A stretch of 41,915 nt of DNA, taken from contig CAYRGU010000130.1 of the NCBI GenBank assembly GCA_964423845.1, positions 1-41,915 on the forward strand. The letters are read 5' to 3'. The notes beneath the pieces were generated by a model. That model saw only the letters and a list, made by a program, of their open reading frames with translations. It had not been told where the DNA came from and ran no database searches. Positions within the stretch are counted from its first letter, which is position 1. Every line of letters begins with the position of its first letter. The translations under genes and the position numbers were made by a program. Of this stretch, positions 356 through 16,380 are shown in pieces. The stretch is from an uncultured Nitrospirota bacterium (GTDB taxonomy: Bacteria; Nitrospirota; Nitrospiria; SBBL01; SBBT01).

Positions 356-844
356 ATGTTTGATAAAGACTGCCCGGAAAAGGGGAAGGGGGTTGCGGAA
401 TCGGCGACCGAGATGGTCCAGATTGTCCTGCCCAATGATACCAACCTCATGGGGAATCTTCTTGGCGGAACCTTGATGCACTGGATTGATCAGGTGGGGG
501 CGGTTGTTGCCAACCGGCACAGCAGAAGGCCGATCGTGACCGCTTCGATGGAGCGGATTGATTTCCATGCGCCAGTTCATCTGGGGAGTATCGTGATCTT
601 GCAAGGAAGACTCGTCTATGTGGGAAAAAGTTCCATGGAGGTGGCCGTGACGGTCTATGCTGAAAATGGCCTGACGGGGGAGCGGCTGCATACCAGCAGC
701 GCGACATTAACCTTCGTTGCGGTGGGGGACGATGGCAAGTCGGTAGCCGTTCCGGCCTTGGTTTTAACCAATGAGGAAGAGCAACAGCGTTACCAGGATG
801 CGAGCGATCGGCATCGGATCAGAAAAAGTCATCAGGGGGTATAG
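356..844 (+). CDS. Acyl-CoA thioesterase, hotdog fold (YciA/BFIT-like)
   Basis: 162-aa ORF. VLPNDTNLMGNLLGGTLMHWIDQVGAVVANRHSRRPIVTASMERIDFHAPVHLGSIV matches the 4HBT/YciA-type thioesterase core. The stop abuts the tldD start. Confidence 0.8.
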   Translation: MFDKDCPEKGKGVAESATEMVQIVLPNDTNLMGNLLGGTLMHWIDQVGAVVANRHSRRPIVTASMERIDFHAPVHLGSIVILQGRLVYVGKSSMEVAVTVYAENGLTGERLHTSSATLTFVAVGDDGKSVAVPALVLTNEEEQQRYQDASDRHRIRKSHQGV

Positions 845-2284: not shown

Positions 2285-2334
2285 CCCTTTTCACGGCTTG
2301 TTCGCGGCCTTAAAAAATACCAGGACGATTTGTC

Positions 2335-3681
2335 ATGCAGTTTAATGTAGACCAGGCTGTCGCGTTATTGAAAAAGGCATTGGGATCTGGTGCCACTTCC
2401 GGGGACCTCCTGTTCGTAGAGGGAGATTCTTTTTCCGCTCAAGTCCGGATGGGAGAGATAGAAAAGATTAGCAGCGCCCACGAGAAGATCCTGGGATTGA
2501 GGCTTTTTTATGGGGTGCGCTCGGCCCTGACCTCGACGTCCGACTTAAGGCCGGACTCCCTGAATCGTTTAATGGCAGAGACCCTGGCGTTGGCTAAAAT
2601 GGCCGCCGAAGACCCCTGCTCTGGCCTGCCGGAGTTTCAGCATTGCGCCACGGCGTTTCCGAAGTTGGATATTGTTGATTCGGACATCGAGGAAATTTCC
2701 ATCGCCGAAAAGATTGATTTCGCAAAACGGGCCGAAGCGGCGGCCCTTTCCTGTGATCCACGATTGACGAACTCCGACGGGGCGGACTTCGGAAACTATC
2801 GTTCGATGGTTTTATATGCCGCAAGCAACGGATTTGATGGCGGCTTCGAGGGATCTGGGGTGTCGGTTTCAGCGGTTCCCATTGCCACCTTGAATGGCCA
2901 GATGCAGCGGGATTACTGGTATTGCTCCCGGCGAAAATTCAAGGCGCTGGCGTCGCCTGCGTCCATTGGTCAAAAGGCCGCGATGCGCACCCTCCGCCGT
3001 CTGGGCGCGAAGAAAGTCGCCACCTGTCAGGTGCCGGTCATTTTTGATCCGGAGGTGGCCTCATCGCTCCTGGGGCATCTCTCTTCGGCCCTCTCTGGCT
3101 ATGCCCTGTATAAAAAGGCCTCTTATCTGGTGGATCGGATCGGAAGTCGGATTGCCCCGACGGGGGTGACGATTCTGGAGGATCCAACCCTTGTCTCGGG
3201 CCTGGGGTCAAGGCCGTTTGATGGCGAGGGGCTTCCTTCGTGTCGCAAGGTCATCGTTGAGAACGGGATATTGAAGAGCTATCTTCTGGATACTTACTCC
3301 GCTCGAAAACTGGGTCTGACCTCGACGGGGAACGCCACCCGGGGGGCGGGAGATCCCCCGTCGGTTGGAACCACCAATTTCTATATGGCCCCTGGGCCGG
3401 ATTCCCCAGAGGAAATCATTCGATCGGTCCGAACTGGATTTTATGTGACGGAGCTGATTGGTTTTGGTGTGAACACGGTCACGGGGGATTATTCGCGCGG
3501 AGCGGTCGGGTTATGGATTGAAAATGGAGAATTCACCCACCCGGTGGAGGAGGTGACCATTGCGGGGAACCTCATGGAAATGTTTTTGAACCTTGAAAAG
3601 ATTGGCAACGATCTTGATCTTCAGAAAAGAACTTCCGCGCCGACCCTCAAAATCTCACAGATGACCGTCGCTGGGAATTAA
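2335..3681 (+). CDS. pmbA: Metalloprotease PmbA/TldE
   Basis: 448 aa. It has PmbA/TldD-family C-terminal blocks (GFYVTELIGFGVNTVTGDYSRGAVGLWIENGE, APTLKISQMTVAG) and lacks the HExxH motif, as expected for the PmbA partner. Confidence 0.88.
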   Translation: MQFNVDQAVALLKKALGSGATSGDLLFVEGDSFSAQVRMGEIEKISSAHEKILGLRLFYGVRSALTSTSDLRPDSLNRLMAETLALAKMAAEDPCSGLPEFQHCATAFPKLDIVDSDIEEISIAEKIDFAKRAEAAALSCDPRLTNSDGADFGNYRSMVLYAASNGFDGGFEGSGVSVSAVPIATLNGQMQRDYWYCSRRKFKALASPASIGQKAAMRTLRRLGAKKVATCQVPVIFDPEVASSLLGHLSSALSGYALYKKASYLVDRIGSRIAPTGVTILEDPTLVSGLGSRPFDGEGLPSCRKVIVENGILKSYLLDTYSARKLGLTSTGNATRGAGDPPSVGTTNFYMAPGPDSPEEIIRSVRTGFYVTELIGFGVNTVTGDYSRGAVGLWIENGEFTHPVEEVTIAGNLMEMFLNLEKIGNDLDLQKRTSAPTLKISQMTVAGN

Positions 3682-3694
3682 GGAGCCGCGCCGA

Positions 3695-4300
3695 CTAATT
3701 TTTCTCTGTTGAAATACTAAGCTCTTTCAGCTTTTTGCGCAGGGTGTTCCGGTTGATCCCAAGCAGTTGAGCGGCCTGGATCTGATTGCCCTTGGTTTCC
3801 CGCAGGGCGAGGGTGAGAATGGGTTTTTCAAATTCCCGAATCAGCAGACTATACAGGTTGGCCACCTTGCAGTGTTTCACCTTCTGGACAAAGTCACTCA
3901 ATTTCTTTTCCACCAGGGCGGTGAGGTGCAGCTCGCTCTCCTGAAGACTTGGATTTTCAGGTGGGGCGGCTTTATGGGGGACCGCTTTGACGGGCTCTCC
4001 ATGAGGAAGGATCGACAAGGCGGCATTCCGGATCTGGGGGGCCGTCTTCTTTAACATCGCGCTTGAGGCGATGACTGCGTAAAATTCTTTCCCCTCTTGT
4101 CGCATGGTTTGAAGTTTTTGAACGGACTGCCACCAACCGTTCTCCGTGTCAATGACGAAGAAGGACCGATCCGGATAGCTGTTGCCGCGAAGATGTTTGA
4201 TCGATTTGACGGAAGTGAGCGGGGCGTCTTGCCTGAACTCTTTCTGAAAGTGAACCATCAATCCGGCGTCTTGATGAACAAGAAAAATTTCCGGGTCCAC
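3695..4300 (-). CDS. Receiver-like domain + Fis-type HTH transcriptional regulator (RegA/ActR-like architecture, no AAA+ domain)
   Basis: The C-terminus NQIQAAQLLGINRNTLRKKLKEL is a Fis-type HTH. EIFLVHQD...SFFVIDTENGWW...FYAVIASSA follows the receiver-domain beta/alpha pattern. The track ORF extends to 4381, a GTG overlapping the clpB stop. I prefer the GTG at 4300 (MDPEIFLVHQD) because GGAG (CTCC at 4308-4311 on +) sits 7 nt upstream. Confidence 0.6.
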   Translation of the reverse strand: MDPEIFLVHQDAGLMVHFQKEFRQDAPLTSVKSIKHLRGNSYPDRSFFVIDTENGWWQSVQKLQTMRQEGKEFYAVIASSAMLKKTAPQIRNAALSILPHGEPVKAVPHKAAPPENPSLQESELHLTALVEKKLSDFVQKVKHCKVANLYSLLIREFEKPILTLALRETKGNQIQAAQLLGINRNTLRKKLKELSISTEKN

Positions 4301-4377
4301 AGAAACACTCCATAGCCACGCGATGAGTAAAACGAAGGGAGGACAAACGAATGACGGTAAAAACTGGCCCGTTTCTA

Positions 4378-7005
4378 TCACACCCCTTTGGGCCTGTCAA
4401 GAAGAGGTGCCGCGTCGGAGACGGGACGAAAAACAAGATGTCCTTCGTCTACGGCAGCTTCAACGTAATCCCCTTCCTTGATGGCGCCCGAGAGGAGTTT
4501 GACCGAGAGCGGATTTAAGAGATCTCTTTGGATGACCCGTTTGAGCGGACGGGCGCCAAAGACTGGATCGTACCCTTCACGGACCAGGTGTTGGAGGGCC
4601 TCCGGTGTCAGCGCGAGCTCAATCTGTTTCTCTTTCAGGCGCTCATTGAGTTGGGCCAGTTGTATTTCAATGACTTTCTTTAAATGCGCGAGGGTGAGTG
4701 GATGGAAGATGATGATGTCATCGATACGGTTTAAAAATTCAGGGCGAAAATGACCGCGCAATGCCTGCAGAATACGATTGCGCATCTCTGTTTCATTTTC
4801 ACTCGGTTCCTGAAGCTGCTGGCTTCCGAGATTAGAGGTCATCATGAGGAGTGTGTTTTTAAAATCGACCGTGCGTCCCTTTCCGTCGGTCAGCCGCCCT
4901 TCGTCTAACACTTGTAAGAGAATGCCGAAGCAATCGGGATGGGCCTTTTCTATTTCGTCGAACAGGATGACCGCGTAGGGCCGTTTTCGAACCGCTTCCG
5001 TCAGCCACCCGCCCTCCTCATACCCCACATAGCCAGGCGGGGCGCCAATCAGACGCGCCACGGCGTGCTTTTCCATATATTCAGACATGTCGATGCGAAT
5101 CATTGACTGAACATCATCAAAGAGAAATTCGGCGAGGGCCTTCGCGGTTTCTGTCTTCCCCACGCCGCTGGGCCCCAAAAAGATGAACGACCCCAACGGT
5201 CGATGGATGTCCGAGAGGCCAGAGCGCGCGCGGCGGATGGCGTGACAGACGGAGGAAATCGCCGCGTCTTGCCCCACGACCCGCTGGTGGAGCCGATCCT
5301 CCATCTGCATTAACTTCTGGACCTCTGTCTCGACCATTCGGGAGAGGGGGATGCCGGTCCATTTTGAAACCACCTCGGCGATCTCTTCTTCGTCGATCTC
5401 TTCTTTGAGCATCTTTTGTCCGGCCTGCAACCCCTGGAGCCGAACATTCTCCTCGGTCAGTTGTTTGTTCAGTTGGATCAACCGGCCATAACGCAACTCG
5501 GCGGCCCGTCCAAGATCGCCGACCCGCTCCGCCTGCTCCGCGTTTTGCTTCGCCGTTTCAATCTCTTCTTTGACCTGCCGGATTTTTTGGATCGCCCCTT
5601 TTTCAGACAGCCACTGCGCCATCAGCAACTCGGCACCTTCTTTAAGATCGATCAGCTCTTTTTCAATGCGGGACAGCCGTCCATGAGAGATCTCGTCGGA
5701 CTCTTTTTTGACGGCTTCCCGTTCGATCTCCAACTGTCGAATCTTTCTCCGAAGTTCGTCGAGCATGGTCGGCATGGAATCCGTTTCGATGCGCAGCCGT
5801 GACGCGGCCTCGTCGATCAAGTCAATCGCCTTATCCGGGAGGAAGCGATCCGAGATATACCGATGGGACAGGGTGGCCGCAGCCACCAGTGCCGCGTCTT
5901 TGATCCGAATCCCGTGGTGCACCTCGTAACGTTCCTTCAGGCCCCTTAGGATGGAGATGGTCTGATCCACCGTCGGTTCACAGACAAGAATGGGCTGAAA
6001 TCGTCGTGCCAGGGCGGGGTCCTTTTCGATACGTTTCCGGTATTCATCGAGGGTGGTCGCGCCCACCGCGCGTAACTCCCCCCGTGCCAGTGCCGGTTTC
6101 AGAAGGTTGGAGGCGTCCATGGCCCCCTCTGCCGCGCCCGCGCCCACCAGGGTGTGCAGCTCGTCAATGAAAAGAATGACCTCTCCCTGGGCATCGACCA
6201 CCTCTTTCACGACGGCCTTCAGGCGTTCTTCAAACTCGCCACGCAGCCGGGCGCCAGCGACCAGCATCCCCATATCGAGGGCATGAACCCGTTTGTTCTT
6301 GAGACCTTCGGGAACATCCCCTGAAATAATCCGCCGCGCCAGACCTTCCGCAATGGCGGTTTTCCCCACGCCGGGCTCCCCAATCAGGACGGGATTATTT
6401 TTCGTCCGTCGGGACAGGACCTGGATGACACGTCGGATTTCTTCGTCTCGTCCGATGACCGGATCGAGTTTTCCCCGGTGGGCCAGATCCGTCAAGTTGA
6501 TGGAATAGCGCGTGAGGGCCTGGTATTTGTCTTCCGGATTGGGGTCCGTGATGCGATGGGATCCTCGAACTGCTGCCAGGGCAGACAGAACGGCCTCTCG
6601 CTCCAGGCCAGACTCTTTGAGGAGGGGGCCCATCCCGTTTTTGCACGCCACAAGGGCAAGCAGCAAATGCTCTGTACTTAGATAGTCGTCCTTGAGATAG
6701 TCGGCTTCGACCTGGGCCCGTTCCATGAGAGAGGTCACCCCCGGCGTGATGTAAACGGATCCAACGGCCCCCGGACCTGAAACCTGTGGGAGGTGTTTAA
6801 GCTGATCCAATATCTTTTCACGAAGGGGATCTGCGGAGAGGCCCATTTTCCGGAGAAGATTCAAGACGGTCCCCTCTTTCTGTTCCAGGAGAGCGAGCGC
6901 AATATGTGGGAGATCCATCTGTTGGTGGTTTAGAGCCTGGGCTTTTTTCTGGGCCTCTTGCAAGGCCTCCTGGGCTTTGAGCGTGAGGCGGTCCGGACGG
7001 ATCAT
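4378..7005 (-). CDS. clpB: Chaperone/disaggregase ClpB
   Basis: 875 aa. It has two AAA+ modules ([15 protein letters not shown] and [15 protein letters not shown] Walker A motifs), a long coiled-coil middle domain, and a Clp N-domain at the N-terminus. Confidence 0.95.
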
Positions 7006-7031
7006 GGTTCCCCCTGCGGTGCGTTGGATGA

Positions 7032-7060
7032 TATATAAAACGGATCTAAAACGAATTCAA
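7032..7060 (-). promoter_or_regulatory. Candidate sigma70-type promoter for clpB
   Basis: On the minus strand: TTGAAT (7060-7055), a 17-nt spacer, then TATATA (7037-7032), about 26 nt upstream of the clpB ATG. It overlaps a short hairpin, AGGCGG-cctct-CCGCCT at 7060-7076, that could terminate nadB. No clear sigma32 -10 (CCCCAT) was seen. Confidence 0.3.
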
Positions 7061-7128
7061 GGCGGCCTCTCCGCCTCTTCCTGGTGAATAAGGTTTGACC
7101 CCCGGATCTTTGGGAGGAGGATCGCCCT

Positions 7129-8739
7129 TTACAGGGATCGGGCCTTTTCTGCGAGGAAGTGGAAATTTTTATAGAGGTCGCTTCGATGGAGGGTCTGGTG
7201 TTCTGGAGAGGATTTGCTTTCAGGAAAATCCTTCCGAACATGGGCCCCCACGCTCTCTGGCCTTCGCAGGGCGGATTCGATGACGGCTGCGGAGACCCAG
7301 AGCATATTGCGGGTTTCCATCGCAAGTCGGCGGGGGTCATTTTTTGTAAAAACAGGGCCCCACGTCTGAATTTTCCGGATCGCTTTCTGAAGGGAGGCCC
7401 GGCTTCGGAGAATCCCGACCTCCTTCCACATGATTTCACGAAGTTCGTTCTGGATGGGGAGATAGGTTGAATCGGGGGGGCGGGTGTCCCAGGAAGAAAT
7501 CTTCACCGCTTCGTCAAATTCGACGGCGGGGGCCTGGCCGAGGGCCTCTCCTGCCCGTGCCCCGAAGACCAGGGCCTCTAAAAGAGAATTGCTGGCCAGA
7601 CGATTGGCCCCATGGGCGCCGGTGCATGCGGTTTCCCCCACGGCCCATAACCCATGAATGGCGGTCTCCCCCTGGAGATTGGTTTTCACCCCCCCCATGA
7701 GATAATGCGCACTGGGCCCCACGGGGATCCTCTCGCGCGTGATATCAATACCGTACTGAAGACAGGTGCCGTAAATCGAGGGGAAACGCTTTTTGATAAA
7801 GGCGGGCCTTAACCCGGTCATATCCAGAAAGACGTGGCTCAACTTCCCGTGCTGCATTTCCTCCCAGATGGCTTGCGTGACCAGGTCGCGGGGGGCCAGT
7901 TCTGCTTCGGGGTGGTAACGGTCCATAAACGCCTTTCCTTCCATATTTCTAAGGAGTCCCCCTTCGCCCCGCATGGCCTCCGAGAGGAGAAAGGAGGGGG
8001 CGGGAGGGGAGGCCAAGGCCGTGGGATGAAATTGAAAAAACTCCATGTCTTCCACAGGCGCGCCAGCACGAAGTGCCATGGCAATGCCATCTCCGGTGGC
8101 CACGGGAGGATTTGTGGTTCTCTGATAAATCTGTCCGGCCCCCCCTGTGGCCAGGATGACCGCCCGGGCGAAGAACGGCTTGATCTGCCCGCTCTCTTCA
8201 TCGATGACCCAGGCGCCATGACAGGTTTGTGTCTGGTCGCAAATGAGATCCATCGCAAAGTGGCTGTGCCGGATTTCAATGTTTTTCCTTTTTTTGATTT
8301 CCCGCACCAGCACGCGGATCAGTTCGCTTCCCGTTCTATCTCCCCGGGCCCTTAAGATTCGTTCCTGGTGATGTGCGCCTTCACGGGCCCAGGCAAATTG
8401 ACCGTTAATTTTATCAAACCTGGCCCCCCATGAAATCAGCGCCTCAATCTGTTGGACCCCGTCTTCCACCAAAACTTGCACGGCCTTCGGGTGGCAGAGG
8501 CCTCTTCCCGCCGCAAGGGTGTCCTGATAATGGGATCGCAGGGATTTACCTCGGCCAAGGGCCACCGCAATTCCCCCCTGCGCATATTCTGAATTGGATT
8601 CAAGCCGAGGGCCTTTATGCAGGATGAGGACCTTTCCCCATTGGCTTGCCGCGATGGCGGCCCGAAGGCCCGCGACGCCTACGCCGATGACCAAAAAGTC
8701 GGTTTTAACCGGTGTAACAAAACGGGTCCGTGATGGCAT
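7129..8739 (-). CDS. nadB: L-aspartate oxidase
   Basis: 536 aa. The N-terminal FAD fold is DFLVIGVGVAGLRAAI. SEYAQGGIAVA, HPTAL and GANRLASNSLLEALVFG are the fumarate reductase/aspartate oxidase flavoprotein signatures. The size and lack of partner subunits fit NadB. Confidence 0.93.
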   Translation of the reverse strand: MPSRTRFVTPVKTDFLVIGVGVAGLRAAIAASQWGKVLILHKGPRLESNSEYAQGGIAVALGRGKSLRSHYQDTLAAGRGLCHPKAVQVLVEDGVQQIEALISWGARFDKINGQFAWAREGAHHQERILRARGDRTGSELIRVLVREIKKRKNIEIRHSHFAMDLICDQTQTCHGAWVIDEESGQIKPFFARAVILATGGAGQIYQRTTNPPVATGDGIAMALRAGAPVEDMEFFQFHPTALASPPAPSFLLSEAMRGEGGLLRNMEGKAFMDRYHPEAELAPRDLVTQAIWEEMQHGKLSHVFLDMTGLRPAFIKKRFPSIYGTCLQYGIDITRERIPVGPSAHYLMGGVKTNLQGETAIHGLWAVGETACTGAHGANRLASNSLLEALVFGARAGEALGQAPAVEFDEAVKISSWDTRPPDSTYLPIQNELREIMWKEVGILRSRASLQKAIRKIQTWGPVFTKNDPRRLAMETRNMLWVSAAVIESALRRPESVGAHVRKDFPESKSSPEHQTLHRSDLYKNFHFLAEKARSL

Positions 8740-9015
8740 TTATGTCTCTTAAGAAGGTGAACAGGGGGCCCTTTGTAAGTCGTATCATTCCGGGTCTCTT
8801 CATGGTCTGTGGAGTATAGCATAGGATTAAAAAAAAGGGTCAAGGTGAGGCGCTTCAACCACTTGATTTTTCATGAGTAAGGTGCAGGATGAGTGGTTTG
8901 ACTTTTGGTCCTGTTCCTGTTACAAGACTTGCGTTTTATGGGTGTGCGCCAGCCCGAATCAGGGGACGGCCATGGGACGGGTTGGCTTAATTTCTTAAGG
9001 ATCCAAGGAGTCTCA

Positions 9016-9105
9016 ATGTCGCGCGTTGTTAAAAAGAGAAGAAAGAAAATGCGTAAGCATAAGTATAAAAAACTGCTCAAACGGATGAGGCATAAGAATA
9101 AGTGA
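9016..9105 (+). CDS. Small basic protein, bS22-like / AURKAIP1-COX24-domain type (29 aa)
   Basis: MSRVVKKRRKKMRKHKYKKLLKRMRHKNK resembles the about 30-aa lysine/arginine-rich ribosomal protein bS22 family (MGSVIKKRRKRM.KKKHRKLL...). AAGGAG at 9005-9010 lies 5 nt before the ATG at 9016. The track ORF (8905..9105) is an upstream extension in the same frame. Confidence 0.7.
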   Translation: MSRVVKKRRKKMRKHKYKKLLKRMRHKNK

Positions 9106-9121
9106 TCATAAGGGGAACTCC

Positions 9122-9352
9122 ATGGTGGATGTTAAACGGGTTAAAATCCAGGTCAAGACGGTGCGCTCGATTTATGAGGGATATTTAACAATCCCCCAGA
9201 TCCGAAAACGTGTGTCGGACATCCTCAATGAAGAGGAGCGGCTTTTTATCAATCTGACCGATGTTTTAGTGGATGGACAGGTGCCTTTGGTTCCGTTTGT
9301 CTCGCTTAACAAGAACATGGTTGAGTCCGTTTCTGTCATTGGCGAAGGCTAA
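9122..9352 (+). CDS. Hypothetical 76-aa protein
   Basis: Clean ORF starting 16 nt after the bS22-like gene with GGGGAA upstream. I recognise no motif. The composition is soluble and mixed-charge. Confidence 0.5.
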   Translation: MVDVKRVKIQVKTVRSIYEGYLTIPQIRKRVSDILNEEERLFINLTDVLVDGQVPLVPFVSLNKNMVESVSVIGEG

Positions 9353-9534
9353 GTGAAGTTGATGGGAAGGTCTATGGTGGGGCTCCCTCAATTTCATGTC
9401 GGTCCCAGGCAGCAGACAGAGGCCCTCTGTGGCAAGCCAGCGGTGATCCATCTCTTTCGTTCCGATGCCTGTCCAGGCCTCCCGGAGTGAGATATCTGGG
9501 GTGGGGGCCGGATGTAAATTTTAACGGTGGCAGA

Positions 9535-9581
9535 GGGTATTGACAAGGGTATTGACAAAAATATTTCATCATTAGTATGAT
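9535..9581 (+). promoter_or_regulatory. Candidate sigma70 promoter with a duplicated -35 box, upstream of the bd-like oxidase module
   Basis: GGGTATTGACAA is directly repeated (9535-9546 and 9547-9558). TTGACA at 9552-9557, an 18-nt spacer and TATGAT at 9576-9581 make a near-consensus promoter. A second TTGACA lies at 9540-9545. Confidence 0.4.
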
Positions 9582-9638
9582 GCCAAAACTGTCCGGTTTT
9601 GGACGGTCTGGTTTTGATATGGAGCGAGAGATTTCAGG

Positions 9639-9740
9639 ATGGACGATCAAAAGGGAAGGCGTTGGGGAAAATTTGTTTTTTGGATGACATTGGCTTTTTG
9701 CGTGTGGGTTATTGCCTACATCTCTACGCCCCCAAATTAG
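9639..9740 (+). CDS. Unlisted mini-ORF, 33 aa, single predicted transmembrane helix
   Basis: ATG at 9639 to TAG at 9738-9740 gives MDDQKGRRWGKFVFWMTLAFCVWVIAYISTPPN. It has a charged N-terminus followed by about 19 hydrophobic residues, and it resembles the next mini-ORF. The RBS is weak (GAGAG 8 nt upstream). It is below the 60-aa track cutoff. Confidence 0.35.
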   Translation: MDDQKGRRWGKFVFWMTLAFCVWVIAYISTPPN

Positions 9741-9814
9741 CAAGGGGTTAATGGGGGGTGCGCTATCATTCATTTGTGATTTGTGTTTTTTAAAAGATCG
9801 GGAGGGGATTAGAG

Positions 9815-9961
9815 ATGGAGAATGAAGAAGGCGAGAAATGGGGGATGGGAAAGACCGCTGTTGTGTTCACCGCCTGTCTATCTGTTTTTGTGGCCTACTA
9901 TGTCTTCCTGGATTGGGTCATGATGGTTCCTATTCAGAACCTCCCCTTCCCTTACCGTTAA
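9815..9961 (+). CDS. Unlisted mini-ORF, 48 aa, single predicted transmembrane helix
   Basis: ATG at 9815 to TAA at 9959-9961 gives MENEEGEKWGMGKTAVVFTACLSVFVAYYVFLDWVMMVPIQNLPFPYR. GGGAGGGG at 9800-9807 serves as the RBS. It ends 72 nt before the CydA-like gene. I prefer it over the overlapping track ORF 9838..10032, whose product is Cys/Arg-rich and looks non-coding. Confidence 0.45.
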   Translation: MENEEGEKWGMGKTAVVFTACLSVFVAYYVFLDWVMMVPIQNLPFPYR

Positions 9962-10033
9962 GGTGTGTTTGGCGTTGCAGGGGTCCAGCACCCCGGGTCA
10001 TTAAGAGAATACTCGAATTGAAGGAGGTTTGAA

Positions 10034-11977
10034 ATGCGCTTTTTTAGTCGACTCGGAAAAAGCAAGCTGGCCGCTGTTTCACTGTTGGGTGCCATCGCAA
10101 TACTGATCGGTCTCCCTCTTTTCTCTCAAGGGGTCCTGCCGCTCGCAGGGATTGCGCCACTCGCCGTGGGGGCAGAGGAGGTTGCCGCGCCTGAAGCGGA
10201 GGCGAAGGTTGTAAAGGGGAAGGATGTCTACTACAAGACAGAGGGCATCGTGTCGGGTCCTCCGGCGCCTAAGCTTAAATACCCTGACGACTATGGCACC
10301 TACGGTACTTTTCAGAGCCGTACGTTGGTCTGGATGGCCAATCAGCAGCACCTTTATTTTGGGAGTTTCGTTCTTGCGGTTCCCATGTTTGTTTTTGTGA
10401 TGGAATTGGTTGGGATGCTGCAGAAAGATAAAAAGATGGGCAGAAAATACGATGATCTGGCCCATGAGTTTATGAAGATCAGTCTGACCGCCTACTCCAT
10501 TACCGCGATTTTGGGAGGTCTTCTGATTTTTACCTTTCTGGCCCTTTATCCTGGTTTTTTTGGGTACCTCGCTCGTATTTTCAGGCCGATCATGCACGTT
10601 TATGCGCTTCTGTTTATTCTGGAGAGCGGAACGCTTTATGTGTACTACTATGGCTGGGATCGGATGAACGACGATGGTTTCTGGAAGTGGGTCCATCTCT
10701 CCATATCCCTCCTTTTGAACACAATTGGCTTGGCGCTGATGTTTTTTGCGAATGCCTGGGTGGCCTTTATGCAGTCGCCTGCGGGGGTGGACGAGCAGGG
10801 GCAGTTCTTGGGAAATATCTGGCGCGTTGTGCATACCCCCCTTTGGATCCCCATTGTTGTGCATCGGATTCTCGGAAATGCGGCGTTTGGGGGGGGCGTT
10901 GTAGCGGCTTACGCAGCGTATCGTCTTTTGGCGGCAAAAACTCCGGAGGAGAAGGCCCATTACGATTGGATGAGCTATACGGCGATGTTTATGGGTGTTT
11001 TAAACCTTATTCCTCTTCCGTTTGCGGGCTATTGGCTCATGCGTGAGGTCTATGCGTACCGTCAGCAGATGGGCATTACGCTGATGGGGGGCTTGCTTGC
11101 GTGGGTCTTTATTATGCAGGCCACGATGATTGCGACCCTTTTTGTAACGGTGAATTACTATCTTTGGCAGGCGATGGGCAGGATGCCGGGGGGAGAGAGA
11201 TATTATAAGTATTTCAAGTACATGCTCCTCGTATTGATTGTCTCGACCATATCCTGGCTGACACCGCATACCATCGTGATGACGCCTGCGGAGCTCAAGG
11301 CGATGGGCGGCGCGCAGCATCCTATCGTGGGAAACTATGGCGTGATGTCGGCAAAAAATACCGCCATCAACATCATGATCACCACGACGGTGCTCTGTTT
11401 CATTCTGTATCAGCGTTGTAATAAGGTTCCAACTGTAAAATGGGCGCGGGTGGGGAATCTTATTTTGGGTGCGATGTTTATTGGTGCCGCGTTTAATATT
11501 ATTTTCTTGGGGATATACGGCTATTATATCCCGGCCAATGTCCGTATTGGTCTTTCTGTCCCGCAGGTCTGTACGACCCTGACGACGCTGTTTGTGGGGG
11601 TCACCATCAACACGTTGATGTTGAAGAATGCCCGGTCTCTGGGGGAGATACGGTGGGGGACGCTTTCGACGAGGGGGGCCTATGCCCTGTTCTTGTTAGC
11701 GGTGGCGTTTACCTGGACGATGGCCGTGATGGGGTATATTCGCTCATCGGTTCGTTTGCATTGGCATATTAACGAGATTATGCGTGACAACTCCCCGTGG
11801 GCGTTCACCAATCCAATTGGCTATGCGGGCAACGTAAATTCAATGAATGTGTTGATTTTTTGGACCATGTTGTTGTTTGTATTCTGGTTGGGGGCGCTGG
11901 CTGCGAAGAAGGCCCCAGTGAAAGAGCCGGTTGGCGTCTTGCCCGGTGAAGTACCTGTGCCTGCGGATAGCCATTAA
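10034..11977 (+). CDS. CydA-like polytopic membrane protein (cytochrome bd-like oxidase subunit I homologue)
   Basis: 647 aa, with AAGGAGG 6 nt upstream. Blocks align by eye to CydA: QQHLYFGSFVLAVPMF (His19 region), FILESGTLYVYYYGWDRM (FFLES..GW region with the conserved Glu), ANAWVAFMQSPAG (ANSWMQ.PVG) and PIVVHRILGNAAFGG (His186 region). I count roughly 14 hydrophobic segments. An N-terminal signal/anchor and an Ala/Glu/Pro-rich segment precede the CydA-like core. Confidence 0.85.
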   Translation: MRFFSRLGKSKLAAVSLLGAIAILIGLPLFSQGVLPLAGIAPLAVGAEEVAAPEAEAKVVKGKDVYYKTEGIVSGPPAPKLKYPDDYGTYGTFQSRTLVWMANQQHLYFGSFVLAVPMFVFVMELVGMLQKDKKMGRKYDDLAHEFMKISLTAYSITAILGGLLIFTFLALYPGFFGYLARIFRPIMHVYALLFILESGTLYVYYYGWDRMNDDGFWKWVHLSISLLLNTIGLALMFFANAWVAFMQSPAGVDEQGQFLGNIWRVVHTPLWIPIVVHRILGNAAFGGGVVAAYAAYRLLAAKTPEEKAHYDWMSYTAMFMGVLNLIPLPFAGYWLMREVYAYRQQMGITLMGGLLAWVFIMQATMIATLFVTVNYYLWQAMGRMPGGERYYKYFKYMLLVLIVSTISWLTPHTIVMTPAELKAMGGAQHPIVGNYGVMSAKNTAINIMITTTVLCFILYQRCNKVPTVKWARVGNLILGAMFIGAAFNIIFLGIYGYYIPANVRIGLSVPQVCTTLTTLFVGVTINTLMLKNARSLGEIRWGTLSTRGAYALFLLAVAFTWTMAVMGYIRSSVRLHWHINEIMRDNSPWAFTNPIGYAGNVNSMNVLIFWTMLLFVFWLGALAAKKAPVKEPVGVLPGEVPVPADSH

Positions 11978-11984
11978 GGCTGCG

Positions 11985-12026
11985 GAGGGGTTACGTCTGG
12001 TGTCTGGACGTGACCCCTCTTTTATT
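11985..12026 (+). terminator. Intrinsic terminator/attenuator hairpin between the CydA-like gene and the cytochrome c genes
   Basis: GAGGGGTTACGTC (11985-11997) pairs with GACGTGACCCCTC (12007-12019). That is 13 bp including one G-U pair, with a 9-nt loop, followed by TTTTATT (12020-12026). It starts 8 nt after the stop codon. Confidence 0.6.
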
Positions 12027-12061
12027 GCCTTGATCATGGACGATGTGATGGGGAGAGATCG

Positions 12062-13345
12062 GTGATGGAGAATAAAGTGCAAGAAGCGGTTCCGGTGAAG
12101 GCGAAGAAAGAAAGTGGAGGCATTCTTGTTAAAATTGGCGTTTGGTATTTACTGATCTTGATTATATTCGCTGCCTACACCAACTGGCTTCCTCAAATCC
12201 GGGGAGATGCCCCTGCGGATGCCGTTGCGATCGAACTGGATTCGGCGACCCCAGAAAAGCTGGCTGAAATGGGGAAGATGATTATCTTTGGCACGGATAA
12301 TCCAGAAGGGGTGCTGGCAGGCGGCGGGAATCCGGCAGGAAAGGGTCAGTGTCCTCTCTGTCACCAGTTCTTCCTGGATCAAAAGGCGGATCGATGTCCC
12401 AACCTTGTTGCCCTTCCGTCCTCTCCTAACCCGACCCTTCGTGTCCCAGAGGAGGTTCGTTCTCATAATCGGTTCAAGGAAGACCGCTATAAGGCATTTG
12501 CAACACGATTGGTGAATGGTGAATCGAACTCGGGGATTAAACCCCATGCGCAGACGGGGGGGGAATATATCGTTGAGTCGGAATATTGTCCGAATTGTTA
12601 TGTCGTTGAGGGGTTTGCGATTAAGGGAACGAACGACTCGGAAAGCCCGATGCCGATCATCAACAAGCCCCCCATACAGCTTGTGGATACGGAGATCGTC
12701 TCGGTGATCAGCTTCTTGCAGTCCAAGGATACGCCGGGCGATTTCAGTAAGGTCACTGCCAAGGCGTCGTGGGAGTCTTACTTCGGGAAAAAGCTTCAGA
12801 GTGTTGCGTCCCCTGCGGCAGGGGCCACCCAGGTTGCGGCGGCTGGCCCTCCGATTGCTTTGGAGACGGATACGCCGGAGCAGATTGTGCAAAAAATGGG
12901 TTGTTTTGCCTGTCACAAGATTCCTGGGATTTCCATCGCAAAAATTGGGATGATTGGCCCCTTGCTCATTGAGGGGGTCAACGCGCCAAATCGTATTAAA
13001 TCTCCCGAGTACAGAAAAGCGGTAAAAGAGGGAAAGGCCAAGGCGAGAACTCCAAAAGAATATGTGATGGAGTCGATTATGACGCCGTGGGTCTTTGTTG
13101 TTCCGGGTTTTGCAGATGATATGCTCAAGGACTTTTCGCATAAGTTTACCTTTGCGGCACTTGAGAAAATGGCGGATTATCTACTACAGCAGGACGTGGC
13201 GGCGGCGCTCAAAGATGGAATGGATCGCCTGCCAAATGAAAAAGAAGGCCCCCTTAAAAAGCCTGGGACCACGGCGCGACTCAAGGGTTCCCTCTCGGAG
13301 CGTTTGGCTAGGGGCGGCGGGGCGGAGCGTGGCAGTGGCGGGTAG
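12062..13345 (+). CDS. Membrane-anchored dihaem c-type cytochrome
   Basis: 427 aa (GTG at 12062, ATG at 12065). N-terminal anchor: GILVKIGVWYLLILIIFAAYTNWL. Two CXXCH motifs: CPLCH and CFACH. A third Cys pair, CPNCY, lacks the His. Confidence 0.8.
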   Translation: MMENKVQEAVPVKAKKESGGILVKIGVWYLLILIIFAAYTNWLPQIRGDAPADAVAIELDSATPEKLAEMGKMIIFGTDNPEGVLAGGGNPAGKGQCPLCHQFFLDQKADRCPNLVALPSSPNPTLRVPEEVRSHNRFKEDRYKAFATRLVNGESNSGIKPHAQTGGEYIVESEYCPNCYVVEGFAIKGTNDSESPMPIINKPPIQLVDTEIVSVISFLQSKDTPGDFSKVTAKASWESYFGKKLQSVASPAAGATQVAAAGPPIALETDTPEQIVQKMGCFACHKIPGISIAKIGMIGPLLIEGVNAPNRIKSPEYRKAVKEGKAKARTPKEYVMESIMTPWVFVVPGFADDMLKDFSHKFTFAALEKMADYLLQQDVAAALKDGMDRLPNEKEGPLKKPGTTARLKGSLSERLARGGGAERGSGG

Positions 13346-13402
13346 TATTTTTTCTCTGGCGTTATTTTTTATAGAGGGGATGTGCAAAGAGGGAGGGGGG
13401 GT

Positions 13403-14404
13403 ATGCTAAAGCGGTTTTCGTGGGGAGTTGTCGGTCTCCTGGCTGTTTTTATGATGCCGGTGATGGCGTGGGCTGGCGGTGGCGCGACGGGATGGATTAA
13501 TGCGGGGACGTATGCCCTGGTTGTTCAGTTGGGCACATTCCTGTCGGTCATTTTCATTACCTGGGTGATCAAAGAGAAACTGGGGATTCCGGTCCCAAAG
13601 CTGATTCAAGCCCCGTTGCTATGGGCCACCTGCTATGTTGTTTTACGTGTCTTTTTACAGCCACCCATCCCTTTCACACTGCTGGCCATCTATATGGGGA
13701 TTGCGACGCTTGCGATCTTCATCTATGTGTCCATTACAGATCCCTCCTGGGACGAGTTTAAGGGGCCCATCGTGACCATGTTAGAGGCAGATCAAGGTCC
13801 CGCAAAGACGAGTCGGTATGTGACCTTCACCGTCTTGCCGCTCCTTTTAGCCTACGGGACCTACGATAAGATGGTTCCTAAGTTTGAGGAGCCGATCGAA
13901 TTGAGAACGGTCCATCCGGCGCCTCCGGCCAGTATTAACGTCCATGATAAAATTTTGACCCTTCAGACCGTGGAAAATCCTTATCGTGTGGATGATTCCG
14001 GAAAGTATCTCAAGGTGGGGGGGGAAGCCCAGTATATGGGAAAAAATCCGTTTGCGGAGAACGCGCCAAAGTTTCTTCAAAATGTTCGGGATGGCGGGAC
14101 CGTCTTTTTTGGAACGGCGGGATGTTTTCTATGTCATGGTGATAATCTGGATGGAAAGGGGCCATTTGCCTTTGCATTTAACCCGATTCCTGCGAATTTT
14201 GCAGATCCTGGGACCATTGCCCAGCTTCAGGAGACGTTTGTCTTCTGGCGTGTCGCCAAGGGGGGGCCGGGGGTTCCGCGTGAGTCATTTCCATGGGCCT
14301 CTGCGATGCCTCCTTGGGAAAAGCATCTGACCACGGATGAGATGTGGAAGGTGATTATGTTCGAGTATTGGCGTACTGGATTTTATCCAAGGTCGTGGGA
14401 CTAA
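13403..14404 (+). CDS. Polytopic membrane protein with a C-terminal monohaem cytochrome c domain
   Basis: About five hydrophobic segments are followed by GTAGCFLCHGDNLDGKG (CXXCH) and a distal ASAMPPW Met-ligand motif. The track ORF starts at GTG 13382. I prefer the ATG at 13403 (MLKRFSWGVVGLL...) behind GGGAGGGGGG. Confidence 0.8.
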   Translation: MLKRFSWGVVGLLAVFMMPVMAWAGGGATGWINAGTYALVVQLGTFLSVIFITWVIKEKLGIPVPKLIQAPLLWATCYVVLRVFLQPPIPFTLLAIYMGIATLAIFIYVSITDPSWDEFKGPIVTMLEADQGPAKTSRYVTFTVLPLLLAYGTYDKMVPKFEEPIELRTVHPAPPASINVHDKILTLQTVENPYRVDDSGKYLKVGGEAQYMGKNPFAENAPKFLQNVRDGGTVFFGTAGCFLCHGDNLDGKGPFAFAFNPIPANFADPGTIAQLQETFVFWRVAKGGPGVPRESFPWASAMPPWEKHLTTDEMWKVIMFEYWRTGFYPRSWD

Positions 14405-14452
14405 TCTGCCACGACCTATTAACAAGATGAAGACGAGGATGGAGTCAATTCG

Positions 14453-16174
14453 ATGCGTGTCATGAAAGAAAGTGGCCAAGTGGGGTGGATTGTGTCTGGC
14501 CTTGCCGTGACGATTTTGTCGGCGATGGTTTTGATGGGGGTGGGGCAGGTTCATGCCCAGGATCAGTCTAAAAGTGTGCGGCCCGTTAAAGAAAGCCCTG
14601 AAGATATTGAGGCTGGGAAAGCAATTTATTTCCAAAAGTGTGTCTGGTGCCATGGCCCCGATGGGGCGGGGGATGGCCCCTCTGCCATTCGTTTGGCCAC
14701 AAAACCAAGAAATTTCAATCAGGGGACATTCAAGATTCGTCATACGGCGAGTGGAGAGTTGCCCACCGATGAGGATTTATTTCTGACGGTCACGAATGGT
14801 CTCCCGGGTTCTGCGATGCCGCCATGGGGTGAAATTTTAACGGAGACGGAGCGTCGTCAGGTCATTGGGTTTGTGAAGAATCATTTGGTGAAGGATCGTA
14901 AGTTTGATGACCCGGACGAAACGTTCACGGTCATTGATTATGGAAAGCAGATCCCCTCCTCTGAAGACAGCATTAAAAAGGGGCGGGAGATCTTCATGAC
15001 GAAGGCCAAGTGTGTGGAGTGTCATGGGGTAGAAGGCCGGGGAAACGGTAACTTGACGCAGCGGGATGACTGGGGATTTCCAATTTTTCCAGCGGATTTG
15101 GCCAAGCCGTGGAATTTAAGGGGGAATCGGCGGGACCCGTATAATCCAAAGAATGTTTTTCGGGAGATTTCTACGGGACTCAATGGCACGCCGATGCCTT
15201 CTTTCGCGGATATGCTTTCTGTTGAAGAGCGTTGGCATGTGGCCAATTTCGTGATGTCTTTATCCCAGAAGTATCCGATGGATAAAGAGACGAATAAGCC
15301 ACAGATTGGTTTTGTCATCAAAGGGAATTTTTTGAAGGAAGGTGAAACCCCGAACGACCCTGCCGATCCGAGATGGGAAAAGTTCTCTCCACAGTATGTG
15401 GGTTTGGCCAGCCAGATTATCCAGCCGCCGCGTCATTTTCTAAGAACCGTGGATGATATTCGTGTGCGGGCGGTGTTCAACAGTAAAGAGCTGGCGATCC
15501 TCTTTGAATGGGACGACCGGACTGAAAGCCATCGGGATGAGAATAAGGAGGCTGTTTATGACGTGAAGCGGCTTTCTTCAGCGTCGTTCCCCGCGATTAA
15601 TACCGTGATGGTCACGCATGAAAATGACGAGGTGGTGGGGCCGCTCAAGGGCGTTAATCCTGACCCGGTTGGGGTTTACAACGATGGCATCGCGATTCAG
15701 TTCGCGCAGGCCTGGCAGAAGCTCCCTCATCCGGAGAAACCGTATTTTGTCCATGGGGATGCCAAGCGTGGGACCGATATCTGGAAGTGGGAGTCCGACG
15801 GTGTAGTCAAAGAAATCGAAGGACATGGGATTGATGCCCTTCAGGTACGCGACGGGAGCAAGAACGTCCGGGTCAGCCATGCCAAATGGCGTGATGGACG
15901 ATGGCAGGTGGTGATGAAGCGTCCCCTGGAAACCGGGGATAAAGAAAAAGATGCCCAACTGGAGATGGGGAAAAATATCCCGATCGTATTTTTTGCGTGG
16001 GATGGGGATGCCGGAGAGGTGGAGGGTCGGATGGCCCTTTCGACGTACTATTACCTGATGCTGGAGCCGCCGGTTCCAACCAAGGTCTACGTCGTTCCCC
16101 CGATTGTTGCGGTGGTCGTTGTCCTCATCGAGGGGTTGATCTCCTGGAAGGTTAGAAAGGAAAAGAAGGGCTGA
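14453..16174 (+). CDS. Dihaem cytochrome c fused to an EB_dh/DOMON-like haem-b domain, with a C-terminal transmembrane anchor
   Basis: 573 aa with a signal peptide ending VHAQD. Two class I cytochrome c units: KCVWCHGPDGAGDG...GSAMPPWG and KCVECHGVEGRGNG...GTPMPSF. Then VRAVFNSKELAILFEWDD...DGIAIQFAQAW...YFVHGD...DIWKWESDG...AKWRDGRWQVVMKRPL...IPIVFFAWDGDAGE, the pattern of the ethylbenzene dehydrogenase gamma / type II DMSO-reductase gamma family. The C-terminal helix is VVPPIVAVVVVLIEGLISW. Confidence 0.75.
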   Translation: MRVMKESGQVGWIVSGLAVTILSAMVLMGVGQVHAQDQSKSVRPVKESPEDIEAGKAIYFQKCVWCHGPDGAGDGPSAIRLATKPRNFNQGTFKIRHTASGELPTDEDLFLTVTNGLPGSAMPPWGEILTETERRQVIGFVKNHLVKDRKFDDPDETFTVIDYGKQIPSSEDSIKKGREIFMTKAKCVECHGVEGRGNGNLTQRDDWGFPIFPADLAKPWNLRGNRRDPYNPKNVFREISTGLNGTPMPSFADMLSVEERWHVANFVMSLSQKYPMDKETNKPQIGFVIKGNFLKEGETPNDPADPRWEKFSPQYVGLASQIIQPPRHFLRTVDDIRVRAVFNSKELAILFEWDDRTESHRDENKEAVYDVKRLSSASFPAINTVMVTHENDEVVGPLKGVNPDPVGVYNDGIAIQFAQAWQKLPHPEKPYFVHGDAKRGTDIWKWESDGVVKEIEGHGIDALQVRDGSKNVRVSHAKWRDGRWQVVMKRPLETGDKEKDAQLEMGKNIPIVFFAWDGDAGEVEGRMALSTYYYLMLEPPVPTKVYVVPPIVAVVVVLIEGLISWKVRKEKKG

Positions 16175-16207
16175 TTACGTCTCTCTGTGGGGGGTTGTTC
16201 TGGTGCG

Positions 16208-16245
16208 GGGGGTAGATACTGTAAGCGGTATCTACCCCCTTTTTT
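16208..16245 (+). terminator. Rho-independent terminator ending the respiratory module
   Basis: GGGGGTAGATAC (16208-16219) pairs perfectly with GTATCTACCCCC (16228-16239), with an 8-nt loop, followed by TTTTTT (16240-16245). Confidence 0.8.
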
Positions 16246-16380
16246 AGGAGGTCTGTTTCAGGCCTGTTTCTGTTTGTAATCCATGACGTTTTTGGTTAAG
16301 ATGGGGGCCTTCTGTTGGCTGTTTCGTGGGTGGCATGATGGAAGGAGAGTGGGGCATTCTAAAGTTTAAGGAGGTGGGGA

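Follow-up and report, generated by a model that had tools for sequence, protein, structure and literature searches.

Gene clusters that combine a cytochrome bd-like protein with c-type cytochromes have appeared in genome papers since 2010–2013, with Nitrospira, Nitrospina and anammox bacteria as hosts, and by its composition a system of Manganitrophus may represent the same module. Lucker et al. 2013 described a 'conspicuous cytochrome bd-like oxidase' common to Nitrospina, Nitrospira and Kuenenia, which has 14 transmembrane (TM) helices, keeps the haem-b ligands and carries three helices in place of the Q-loop. The adjoining genes encode two cytochromes c, one monohaem and the other dihaem, as well as an alternative NxrC. 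Here we compare these systems with a locus on the + strand of a contig from an uncultured Nitrospirota bacterium (CAYRGU010000130.1), of which the whole stretch of 41,915 nucleotides (nt) was analysed and is called the window in the following. The locus belongs to the OR-N2 operon type of the literature and is not a new kind of system. We estimated a probability of about 50% that its products would form an OR-N2-type haem-only complex that acts as a non-pumping terminal O2 reductase and is fed by cytochrome c, not by quinol.

In N. moscoviensis, the bd-like_3 protein is encoded together with two membrane-bound cytochromes c and alt_NxrC_2, a protein of about 62 kDa with a TM helix and two haem-c motifs that was discussed as an anchor of NXR. 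The genes of this cluster were among the 40 most transcribed genes during aerobic nitrite oxidation (Mundinger et al. 2019). In some Nitrospira, OR-N enzymes are the sole candidate O2 reductases. The corresponding genes of Kuenenia stand in the order kustd1712 (cydA-like), kustd1711 (dihaem), kustd1710 (monohaem) and kustd1709 (dihaem). They lie in the nxr cluster, and their products are membrane-associated and co-regulated with NXR, in a host that is strictly anaerobic. For Manganitrophus, Yu et al. 2022 described the complex TO_1, which consists of a bd-like protein and a periplasmic cytochrome b, is common to other Nitrospirota and showed expression comparable to or above that of TO_2. The complexes TO_2, TO_3 and TO_4 have MrpD-like, complex III-like or alternative complex III-like parts. 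A marine genus of the Manganitrophaceae has no canonical complex IV and has kept TO_1, and nitrification genes were reported to be missing from the family (Yu et al. 2022). A previous reading of the window from its letters (the sequence-only reading) had mentioned genome papers on Nitrospira and Manganitrophus in which such clusters are noted, and this was correct. Murali et al. 2021 (Murali, Gennis & Hemp) divided the bd superfamily into classes, among which OR-N2 lacks the Q-loop. The working hypothesis of the field is that OR-N enzymes are O2 reductases that oxidise cytochrome c, a donor proposed because the partner proteins are predicted to be periplasm-facing c-type or b-type haem proteins.

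The OR-N bd-like complexes are leading candidates for respiration in Nitrospira, Nitrospina and Manganitrophus, nitrite and manganese oxidisers of global importance. Several of these hosts have no haem-copper oxidase, and the complexes may hand electrons of very high potential on to O2 or drive them uphill so that CO2 can be fixed. If they are cytochrome c oxidases, they are haem-only enzymes derived from the bd family and unrelated to the haem-copper oxidases.

The sequence-only reading had placed six open reading frames (ORFs) in this part of the window, and the ORF listing of the window contained all six at the stated coordinates on the + strand, for proteins of 33, 48, 647, 427, 340 and 573 amino acids (aa). 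The four larger ones are:

10034 to 11977, + strand: 647-aa CydA-like protein of the OR-N2 subfamily, with an N-terminal anchor or signal helix and about 14 TM helices
12062 to 13345, + strand: 427-aa dihaem cytochrome c with a membrane anchor (TM 20-38); haem sites C97-H101/M197 and C281-H285/M354
13382 to 14404, + strand: 340-aa polytopic protein with 4-5 TM helices and a C-terminal monohaem cytochrome c (C248-H252/M309)
14453 to 16174, + strand: 573-aa protein that joins a dihaem cytochrome c to an EB_dh/DOMON-like haem-b domain, behind a Sec-type signal and with a TM anchor at the C-terminus (545-563)

The module is an orthologue of the Nitrospira bd-like_3/alt_NxrC_2 cluster, with 63-68% identity to the Nitrospira orthologues. 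In Ca. Nitrospira bockiana, two small ORFs are followed by genes for a bd-like protein of 646 aa, cytochromes c of 438 aa and 319 aa and a dihaem protein with EB_dh domain of 579 aa. The window CydA-like protein was 67% identical to bd-like_3 of this species versus 52% to bd-like_4. Whereas bd-like_4 lies about 3.6 kb away in Nitrospira, the window holds a single bd-like gene and no second bd-like paralogue. The nearest relatives of the CydA-like protein, with 84-93% identity, were from metagenome-assembled genomes (MAGs) of Ca. Troglogloeales and Ca. Manganitrophaceae (Nitrospirota). The composition and distribution of Manganitrophus TO_1 fit the window module, a likeness drawn only from the published description of TO_1. 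With Kuenenia kustd1712-1709 the window module shares the gene order, and sequences were compared for Kustd1711 only. Unlike these known systems, the window module stands alone among housekeeping genes.

The 647-aa protein had been read as CydA-like, and a search with PF01654 (Cyt_bd_oxida_I) bore this out with 65.7 bits (cutoff 26.2) over no more than profile positions 2-252 of 418. We aligned a profile of 30 family members to the solved CydA chains 6rko, 7ose, 5doq and 9r2g. Matches of the family profile in the PDB were CydA chains exclusively, and CydA chains were also the sole fold matches of Foldseek at E <= 5e-3. An OR-N enzyme was found in the PDB neither by sequence nor by fold, and literature searches revealed no published cryo-electron microscopy (cryo-EM) or biochemistry of bd-like or OR-N enzymes. 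The PDB matches, all to canonical CydA, agree with the previous statement that no purified or solved example is known, as do papers of 2024-2025, according to which composition, function and O2 affinity of OR-N enzymes are still unconfirmed.

In the alignment, H19, E107 and H186 of E. coli CydA correspond to H106, E197 and H277 of the 647-aa protein, and M438 is the equivalent of M393. The position of E99 is taken by an invariant Tyr (Y190) and that of E445 by S571, and further key residues are H221, N442, W577 and H578. The alignment to the four solved chains ended at about residue 300, past TM5, and predicted TM helices fill the region of the Q-loop, of which all canonical residues are absent. 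The AlphaFold2 (AF2) model showed an N-terminal helix and 14 long helices over residues 93-623 with moderate confidence (predicted local distance difference test, pLDDT, 64.6). Murali et al. 2021 gave the OR-N2 signature for a Nitrospira reference as H99/Y183/E190/H213/H269/M430/N434/S563/W569. With an offset of +7/+8 the same residues are present in the window protein as H106/Y190/E197/H221/H277/M438/N442/S571/W577. They were invariant in 30 sequences of several phyla and also in paralogues, and H106, Y190, E197, H221, H277, M438, W577 and H578 persist in representatives that are just 26-44% identical. Two other marks of OR-N2 were found as well, namely about 14 TM helices (in the AF2 model of moderate confidence) and an operon that also encodes several cytochromes c and a homologue of EbdC. 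Judged by these sequence features, the 647-aa protein is a member of OR-N2 and a CydA relative without the quinol-binding Q-loop.

Other classes did not fit. OR-N1 proteins have Gly at the E107 position and petABD-like gene neighbours, and OR-C proteins have haem c fused to CydA and 8 TM helices (Murali et al. 2021); none of this was seen here, which ruled out both assignments. A canonical bd quinol oxidase was ruled out by the missing Q-loop, the substitution of E99 and E445 and the absence of cydB from the scanned ORFs. Clustered at 90% identity, the family comprises over 3,000 clusters; at 50% identity, 914 representatives were found at E <= 1e-3 and 180 at E <= 1e-30.

Canonical cytochrome bd (CydAB; E. 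coli bd-I/bd-II, Geobacillus, mycobacterial) has a homologous CydA in common with the window module, and also single-helix small proteins alongside. Equivalents of H19, E107, H186, M393 and possibly H126 are kept in the window protein. In contrast to the canonical enzymes with their Q-loop, 9 TM helices, CydB and CydDC, the window protein has about 14 TM helices, Tyr for E99 and Ser for E445 and lacks these other elements. The previous reading had noted the absence of cydB and cydCD, and among the scanned ORFs of the 42-kb window we likewise found neither. The canonical donor is quinol, whereas the window module has three partner proteins with five c-haems and one b-haem and a predicted cytochrome c donor.

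In the 647-aa protein, H578 follows S571, at the E445 position, by 7 residues and is a candidate ligand of a third haem. The motif E306-K-A-H-Y-D-W-M313 is highly conserved and predicted to be cytoplasmic, and the inserted helices contain more invariant His and Met residues.

The count of five c-haems in the sequence-only reading agreed with exactly five CXXCH motifs in the module, at C97 and C281 (427-aa protein), C248 (340-aa protein) and C63 and C187 (573-aa protein). Each was kept in 58-69 homologues, and each has its own conserved distal Met (M197, M354, M309, M122 and M248, respectively). Because of this, all five c-haems are predicted to be His/Met ligated. Pfam cytochrome c domains were present in both the 427-aa and the 340-aa protein. 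The solved Kuenenia protein Kustd1711 (PDB 7ZS0, E = 1.6e-4) is distantly homologous to the 427-aa protein, and its His/Met haems have potentials of +355 and +385 mV. These potentials are the sole experimental number for any homologue of a module subunit. By analogy, potentials of this kind would suit the transfer of electrons from Mn(II), nitrite or Fe(II) to O2.

The 340-aa protein had no relative in the PDB by sequence, and its membrane domain was without a family match. Between its membrane and haem domains lies a conserved periplasmic motif, E173-L-R-x-x-H178-P-A-P-P, in which H178 could be part of a ligand or docking element. This E-L-R-x-x-H-P-A-P-P motif is encoded at 13895-13927 of the window (residues 172-182), and H178 is invariant.

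The 573-aa protein combines two cytochrome c domains with the EB_dh/DOMON-like domain that had been proposed for the gene at 14453..16174, and PF09459 confirmed the latter with 63.7 bits against a cutoff of 33.3. Its dihaem sites are C63-H67 with M122 and C187-H191 with M248. Residues 50-273 aligned end to end with chain B of PDB 6h5l (E = 4.9e-52), both CXXCH motifs included. This entry is the structure of a Kuenenia HAO-like complex, and we take its chain B to be kustc0457, a dihaem cytochrome c that partners the HAO-like kustc0458. The dihaem module of the window, by contrast, is fused to EB_dh and an anchor and adjoins a bd-like gene instead of an octahaem HAO gene.

EbdC, NxrC, SerC, ClrC and DdhC, the gamma subunits of type II dimethyl sulfoxide (DMSO) reductases, share the EB_dh/DOMON-like haem-b fold family with the 573-aa protein, and the alignment spans both axial-ligand positions. 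The haem-b ligands M108/K201 of EbdC correspond to M155/K305 of KsNxrC, and these positions aligned to H434 and M527 of the 573-aa protein (codons 15752-15754 and 16031-16033), its predicted haem-b ligands. Among 58 homologues, the first ligand column contained His in 30, Met in 15 and Arg in 7 sequences and the second His in 28 and Met in 27; Lys never occurred. The pairs differed by clade, with His/Met in Nitrospirota and Met/His or His/His in many Proteobacteria and Nitrospinota. One group has Arg at 434 and a His three residues earlier that is paired with Met. K429 of the domain is invariant. The alignment argues that the haem b of the EB_dh domain is kept with altered ligation and that its potential would therefore be unlike that of true gamma subunits. 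TIGR03477 scored 101.4 bits on the 573-aa protein and did not reach its cutoff of 169.85, and NF042980 scored 31.9 against 400. The candidate that the 573-aa protein is a true type II DMSO-reductase gamma subunit was rejected, as the TIGR03477 cutoff was missed and the Met/Lys ligation was not found. In contrast to the gamma subunits with Met/Lys ligands and alpha/beta partners, the window protein has H434/M527, a fused dihaem c and TM helix, and no adjacent alpha or beta subunit gene.

All partners of the CydA-like protein were predicted to be periplasm-facing c-type or b-type haem proteins, as had been claimed before. The missing Q-loop, these periplasmic haem partners and the current hypothesis of the field supported the previous view of a complex fed by cytochrome c rather than by quinol. 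For such an enzyme we infer the electron direction, the haem order, O2 as acceptor and the subunit composition as follows. Electrons from a high-potential periplasmic donor would enter via the haem-b (EB_dh)/dihaem-c subunit; in the lineage of the window this donor would presumably be the machinery that oxidises Mn(II), with soluble cytochromes as go-between. From there, electrons would travel over the His/Met c-haems of both membrane-anchored cytochromes, reach the CydA-like subunit at its b558-type haem (H277/M438) and move on to the active-site haem held by H106. The retained E197 channel may supply cytoplasmic protons for the formation of water, and the charge separation would build up proton-motive force without pumping, as canonical bd oxidases do. 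The structural role of CydB and CydX may fall to the helices in place of the Q-loop and to the two mini-proteins. Conservation of the buried, invariant Glu (E197) suggests a proton-consuming reaction at the haem site over mere electron conduction. Most host lineages named for the 80 related loci (Manganitrophaceae, Nitrospira, Nitrospinota, Zetaproteobacteria and Beggiatoa relatives) are known as aerobic or microaerophilic lithotrophs. The published lack of complex IV in the marine Manganitrophaceae genus, the Nitrospira whose only candidates are OR-N enzymes and the strong transcription of the orthologous genes during aerobic nitrite oxidation also speak for an O2 reductase.

The cbb3-type oxidase (CcoNOP) is a functional analogue in that anchored monohaem and dihaem cytochromes c would supply a catalytic subunit in the membrane with periplasmic electrons. 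The 573-aa protein has a dihaem module similar to CcoP, and both systems are associated with low-O2 lithotrophs. The catalytic subunit of cbb3 belongs to the haem-copper family, whereas that of the window is an unrelated, haem-only, bd-type protein with no evident proton-pumping architecture.

Several points weigh against an O2 reductase. Two residues that matter in canonical bd are replaced, E99 by Tyr and E445 by Ser. No CydB-like partner was found among the scanned ORFs of the window, and CydB helps to form the O2 path in E. coli bd-I. No structural argument on an O2 channel or on haem spacing could be made because the pLDDT of the AF2 model was just 64.6. A published assay of any OR-N enzyme was not found in the literature. 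The same gene order exists in the nxr cluster of strictly anaerobic Kuenenia, co-regulated with NXR, and the presence of the module in this anaerobe therefore keeps non-O2 alternatives alive. In Nitrospira the role of O2 reductase is usually given to the paralogous NIDE0901-like module, and reverse electron flow was favoured for bd-like_3 (Mundinger et al. 2019).

One such alternative is a reductase of a non-O2 substrate (NO, peroxide or other reactive nitrogen or oxygen species) that acts at the bd-type haem with the cytochrome c pool as donor. It draws on the changes in the haem pocket (E99 to Tyr, E445 to Ser) and on the occurrence of the module in an anaerobe whose metabolism has NO as intermediate. 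The very high expression during lithotrophic growth and the core-genome status point to a central bioenergetic role over detoxification, however, and direct evidence for any alternative substrate is absent. We regarded this explanation as quite improbable.

The main rival to the O2 reductase is a cytochrome c:quinone oxidoreductase that would work in the manner of alternative complex III and link the cytochrome c pool to reverse electron flow. It may also work in the opposite direction, from quinol to periplasmic acceptors such as NXR acting as nitrate reductase. Lucker et al. 2013 and Mundinger et al. 2019 suggested such a role for the orthologous cluster, reverse electron flow is needed by these autotrophs, and the role would agree with the membrane-associated, NXR-co-regulated module of the same gene order in the nxr cluster of anaerobic Kuenenia. 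The E306-M313 motif and the invariant His and Met residues of the inserted helices, free of any assigned role, could serve it. It has to assume, however, that a new quinone site evolved in the bd-like subunit, in which no quinone-binding element was recognisable and all canonical Q-loop residues are gone. With His/Met c-haems and a homologue at about +350 mV, electrons would have to move uphill by about 250-420 mV, as estimated from textbook quinone potentials. The potentials of +355/+385 mV are too positive for quinone to be reduced unless energy is put in, and the locus has no gene for a pump-like (Mrp/Nuo-type) subunit. Unlike TO_2, TO_3 and TO_4 of Manganitrophus, the locus encodes no pump-like or Rieske/cytochrome b module. 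In addition, the invariant buried Glu at the E107 position fits catalysis at a haem site. Taken together, we held a cytochrome c:quinone oxidoreductase to be possible, if on balance rather unlikely.

A wider version would make OR-N2 as a whole, in aerobic lithotrophs and anammox bacteria, an energy-coupled oxidoreductase between cytochrome c and quinone (or another acceptor) and not an O2 reductase, which we considered unlikely. The same unlikely version would imply a new entry point for reverse electron flow, made up of a remodelled CydA, new cofactor sites at H412, H429, H578 and E306-M313, and a His/Met haem-b antenna.

The gene order and its surroundings were compared in 80 related loci (L001-L080) and in Ca. 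N. bockiana (L081). The order of cydA-like gene, dihaem c, polytopic monohaem c and dihaem-c/EB_dh/anchor gene was colinear in 60 of the 62 informative loci, that is, those with enough downstream DNA; 18 more loci were cut by contig ends, and the exceptions were L033 and L071. The co-occurrence in this order, on which the previous reading had made its proposal depend, was hence present in the relatives. Hosts were found among Nitrospirota, Nitrospinota, 'Deltaproteobacteria', Alphaproteobacteria, Gammaproteobacteria (including Beggiatoa relatives), Zetaproteobacteria and Burkholderiales. The module is common outside nitrite oxidisers, and many of its hosts are not nitrite oxidisers.

In the window the module is flanked by housekeeping genes (TldD/PmbA, ClpB, NadB, MetK, AhcY, AccD, trp, zwf-gnd-pgi and signalling proteins). 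The gene 3' of the module, from 16381, was identified as metK, and the downstream synteny with metK-ahcY was shared by 18 other Nitrospirota loci. The upstream flank showed no synteny in the relatives, where neither nadB nor the DUF6812 gene accompanies the module. Among the scanned ORFs of the 42-kb window we found no molybdoenzyme, Fe-S subunit, Rieske/cytochrome b or Mrp/Nuo-like genes, and no nxr genes, cupredoxins or multicopper oxidase near the module. An NxrA-like or NxrA-sized family did not recur among the neighbours in the 81 loci.

These data bear on a further explanation, by which the complex would be a docking and electron-collecting platform for a soluble periplasmic NXR-like enzyme of the type II DMSO-reductase family. 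The EB_dh protein would then be an alternative gamma subunit ('alt_NxrC') and the bd-like protein mainly an anchor and wire. The homology of the EB_dh domain to EbdC and NxrC, the annotation of the Nitrospira orthologue as alt_NxrC_2 and its discussion as NXR anchor, and the position of the Kuenenia and Nitrospina genes in or near nxr clusters speak for it. The window, however, contains no molybdoenzyme or Fe-S subunit gene among its scanned ORFs and has housekeeping flanks, Manganitrophaceae are reported to have no nitrification genes, many hosts are not nitrite oxidisers, and no NxrA-sized family recurs in the neighbourhoods of the 81 loci. The haem-b ligands, moreover, are His/Met or swapped and not Met/Lys, with TIGR03477 under its cutoff. 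We therefore judged such a platform to be highly improbable. For this organism, a role as NXR-specific accessory was rejected, as there was no nxr nearby, no recurrent NxrA-like neighbour and a large number of hosts that do not oxidise nitrite.

The locus is a compact, stand-alone version of the module, with six genes, one promoter and no nxr context, in a lineage of manganese oxidisers. Since this lineage holds an nxr-free copy, the module is not tied to nitrite oxidation. The size of the unit could suit heterologous expression and cryo-EM. Targets for mutagenesis and spectroscopy are the His/Met haem b with its swaps between clades, the Tyr at the E99 position, H578 and the two mini-subunits.

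The remaining features of the locus are:

9552 to 9581, + strand: sigma-70-type promoter, TTGACA-18 nt-TATGAT, with 11/12 matches
9639 to 9740, + strand: 33-aa single-helix mini-protein (one TM helix) with the pattern GK..F....FC.W..WY...PP
9815 to 9961, + strand: 48-aa single-helix mini-protein with the near-invariant C-terminus QNLPFPY(K/R)
11984 to 12020, + strand: GC-rich hairpin within the operon, 17 pairs followed by TTTTATT, with a folding free energy (dG) of about -32 kcal/mol
16207 to 16246, + strand: intrinsic-terminator-like hairpin and T-run, with 15 pairs (8 G-C) and the hairpin proper at 16207-16240

The 33-aa ORF was kept in 14 Troglogloeales/Manganitrophaceae loci, and Ca. Nitrospira bockiana has a similar ORF of 39 aa. 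The 48-aa ORF was kept in 25 Nitrospirota loci, with a weaker counterpart of 67 aa in N. bockiana, and exactly this 48-aa protein is already present in a public protein collection. Differences at the three codon positions were 0.36/0.21/0.57 for the 33-aa ORF and 0.40/0.34/0.61 for the 48-aa ORF, a coding pattern in both cases. It matched that of the cydA-like control, with 0.57-0.61 at the third position versus 0.21-0.40 at positions 1 and 2. By this substitution pattern, both mini-ORFs are conserved coding genes. The mini-proteins could be functional analogues of CydX-type subunits. The 48-aa protein in particular is a candidate small subunit, analogous to CydX, CydS or CydH in role and not in sequence.

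The TTGACA/TATGAT promoter that had been proposed at 9552-9581 was supported by the comparison with relatives. In 11 of 14 relatives, the 33-aa ORF is preceded by a TTGACA-17/18-TAnnnT site with at least 10/12 matches and a perfect TTGACA, and because a comparable site is kept in so many of them, the promoter-like site is more than chance. The -35 region (9537-9560) consists of the tandem repeat GGGTATTGACAA GGGTATTGACAA, the extra copy lying 12 nt upstream at about 9537-9548. The TTGACA box thus occurs twice, at a distance of 12 nt, and a well-spaced -10 box belongs to the second one only.

At the far end of the locus, the terminator of the previous reading was present as a hairpin, yet with 15 pairs and a T-run at 16207-16240 instead of the 12 bp given before. 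The dG was about -35 kcal/mol for a stretch of 60 nt, which includes a second, smaller hairpin. The claim of one unit from promoter to terminator held for the signals at both ends and not for the unbroken course between them, as the 17-pair T-run hairpin at 11984-12020 had been missed. This hairpin sits directly 3' of the cydA-like gene and ahead of the cytochrome genes. Because such a strong T-run hairpin follows the cydA-like gene, a simple single promoter-to-terminator unit is doubtful. At the same intergenic spot, nearly all Nitrospirota loci have a hairpin of similar stability (-22 to -33 kcal/mol) and unrelated sequence. Equivalents were seen in L001-L027 and L047 and include some Nitrospinaceae. 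Proteobacteria are without this hairpin, and their genes abut (0-10 nt) or overlap at this place. The hairpins were also checked as members of a known RNA family, and none matched Rfam at gathering score or at E <= 0.1. The hairpin at 11984-12020 is probably an attenuator or an mRNA-stabilising element within the operon, and the transcription unit is probably an attenuated or segmentally stabilised operon. This positional hairpin, the coding mini-ORFs, the His/Met EB_dh ligands with their swaps and the spread outside nitrite oxidisers were not found in the cited papers.

In several related loci the module is duplicated. An 'nxrC-like gene upstream' in seven proteobacterial loci turned out to be a best-hit artefact, and these loci hold two tandem whole modules. 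Tandem bd-like pairs were observed in the alphaproteobacterial MAGs of L045, L046, L050, L051, L055, L056, L059, L060, L063 and L066, with spans of about 400-7500 and about 7800-13000. L066, the one locus annotated, has two complete four-gene modules and two extra small cytochrome c genes between them. The duplication is old, since the tandem copies are just about 40% identical.

Among the recurrent neighbours elsewhere, extra small cytochromes c were found in 19-21 loci. A protein of about 700 aa with Usp and four PCP_red (PF08369) domains adjoins the module in 11 loci of Proteobacteria and Nitrospinota, and a radical-SAM/SPASM/PCP_red protein of about 440 aa does so in 8 loci of these groups. 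Coordinates of PCP_red genes are L066:13179-16587, L076:1331-3535 (- strand), L053:8523-9845 and L081:2779-3279, and the window contains none. In Ca. Nitrospira bockiana, the PCP_red protein has 166 aa and is encoded beside bd-like_4 together with DUF420 and methyltransferase genes. AhbD and NirJ are examples of radical-SAM/SPASM enzymes that modify haems, and the radical-SAM/PCP_red neighbours could provide dedicated cofactor maturation. In 14 Nitrospirota loci (L004:6263-7096, L081:7392-9290 and 12 more), but not in the window, FGE-sulfatase/NirV-like genes are found upstream of the module, and genes for F-ATPase a and c subunits have this position in 6-7 loci (e.g., L009:5296-6373).

Just 5' of the module promoter in the window, and on the same strand, lies a gene for a 76-aa DUF6812 protein (9122-9352). 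It is preceded by a very basic ORF of 29 aa (9016-9105, + strand), MSRVVKKRRKKMRKHKYKKLLKRMRHKNK, which the mechanical ORF listing gave as 8905-9105. The MSRVVKKRRKKMRKHKYKKLLKRMRHKNK ORF matched the bS22 profile NF047430 with E = 3.8e-6 and 26.9 bits, under the cutoff of 34 bits. Judged by this match, 9016-9105 is probably a gene for a small ribosomal protein, of a kind easily missed or wrongly extended by ORF callers.

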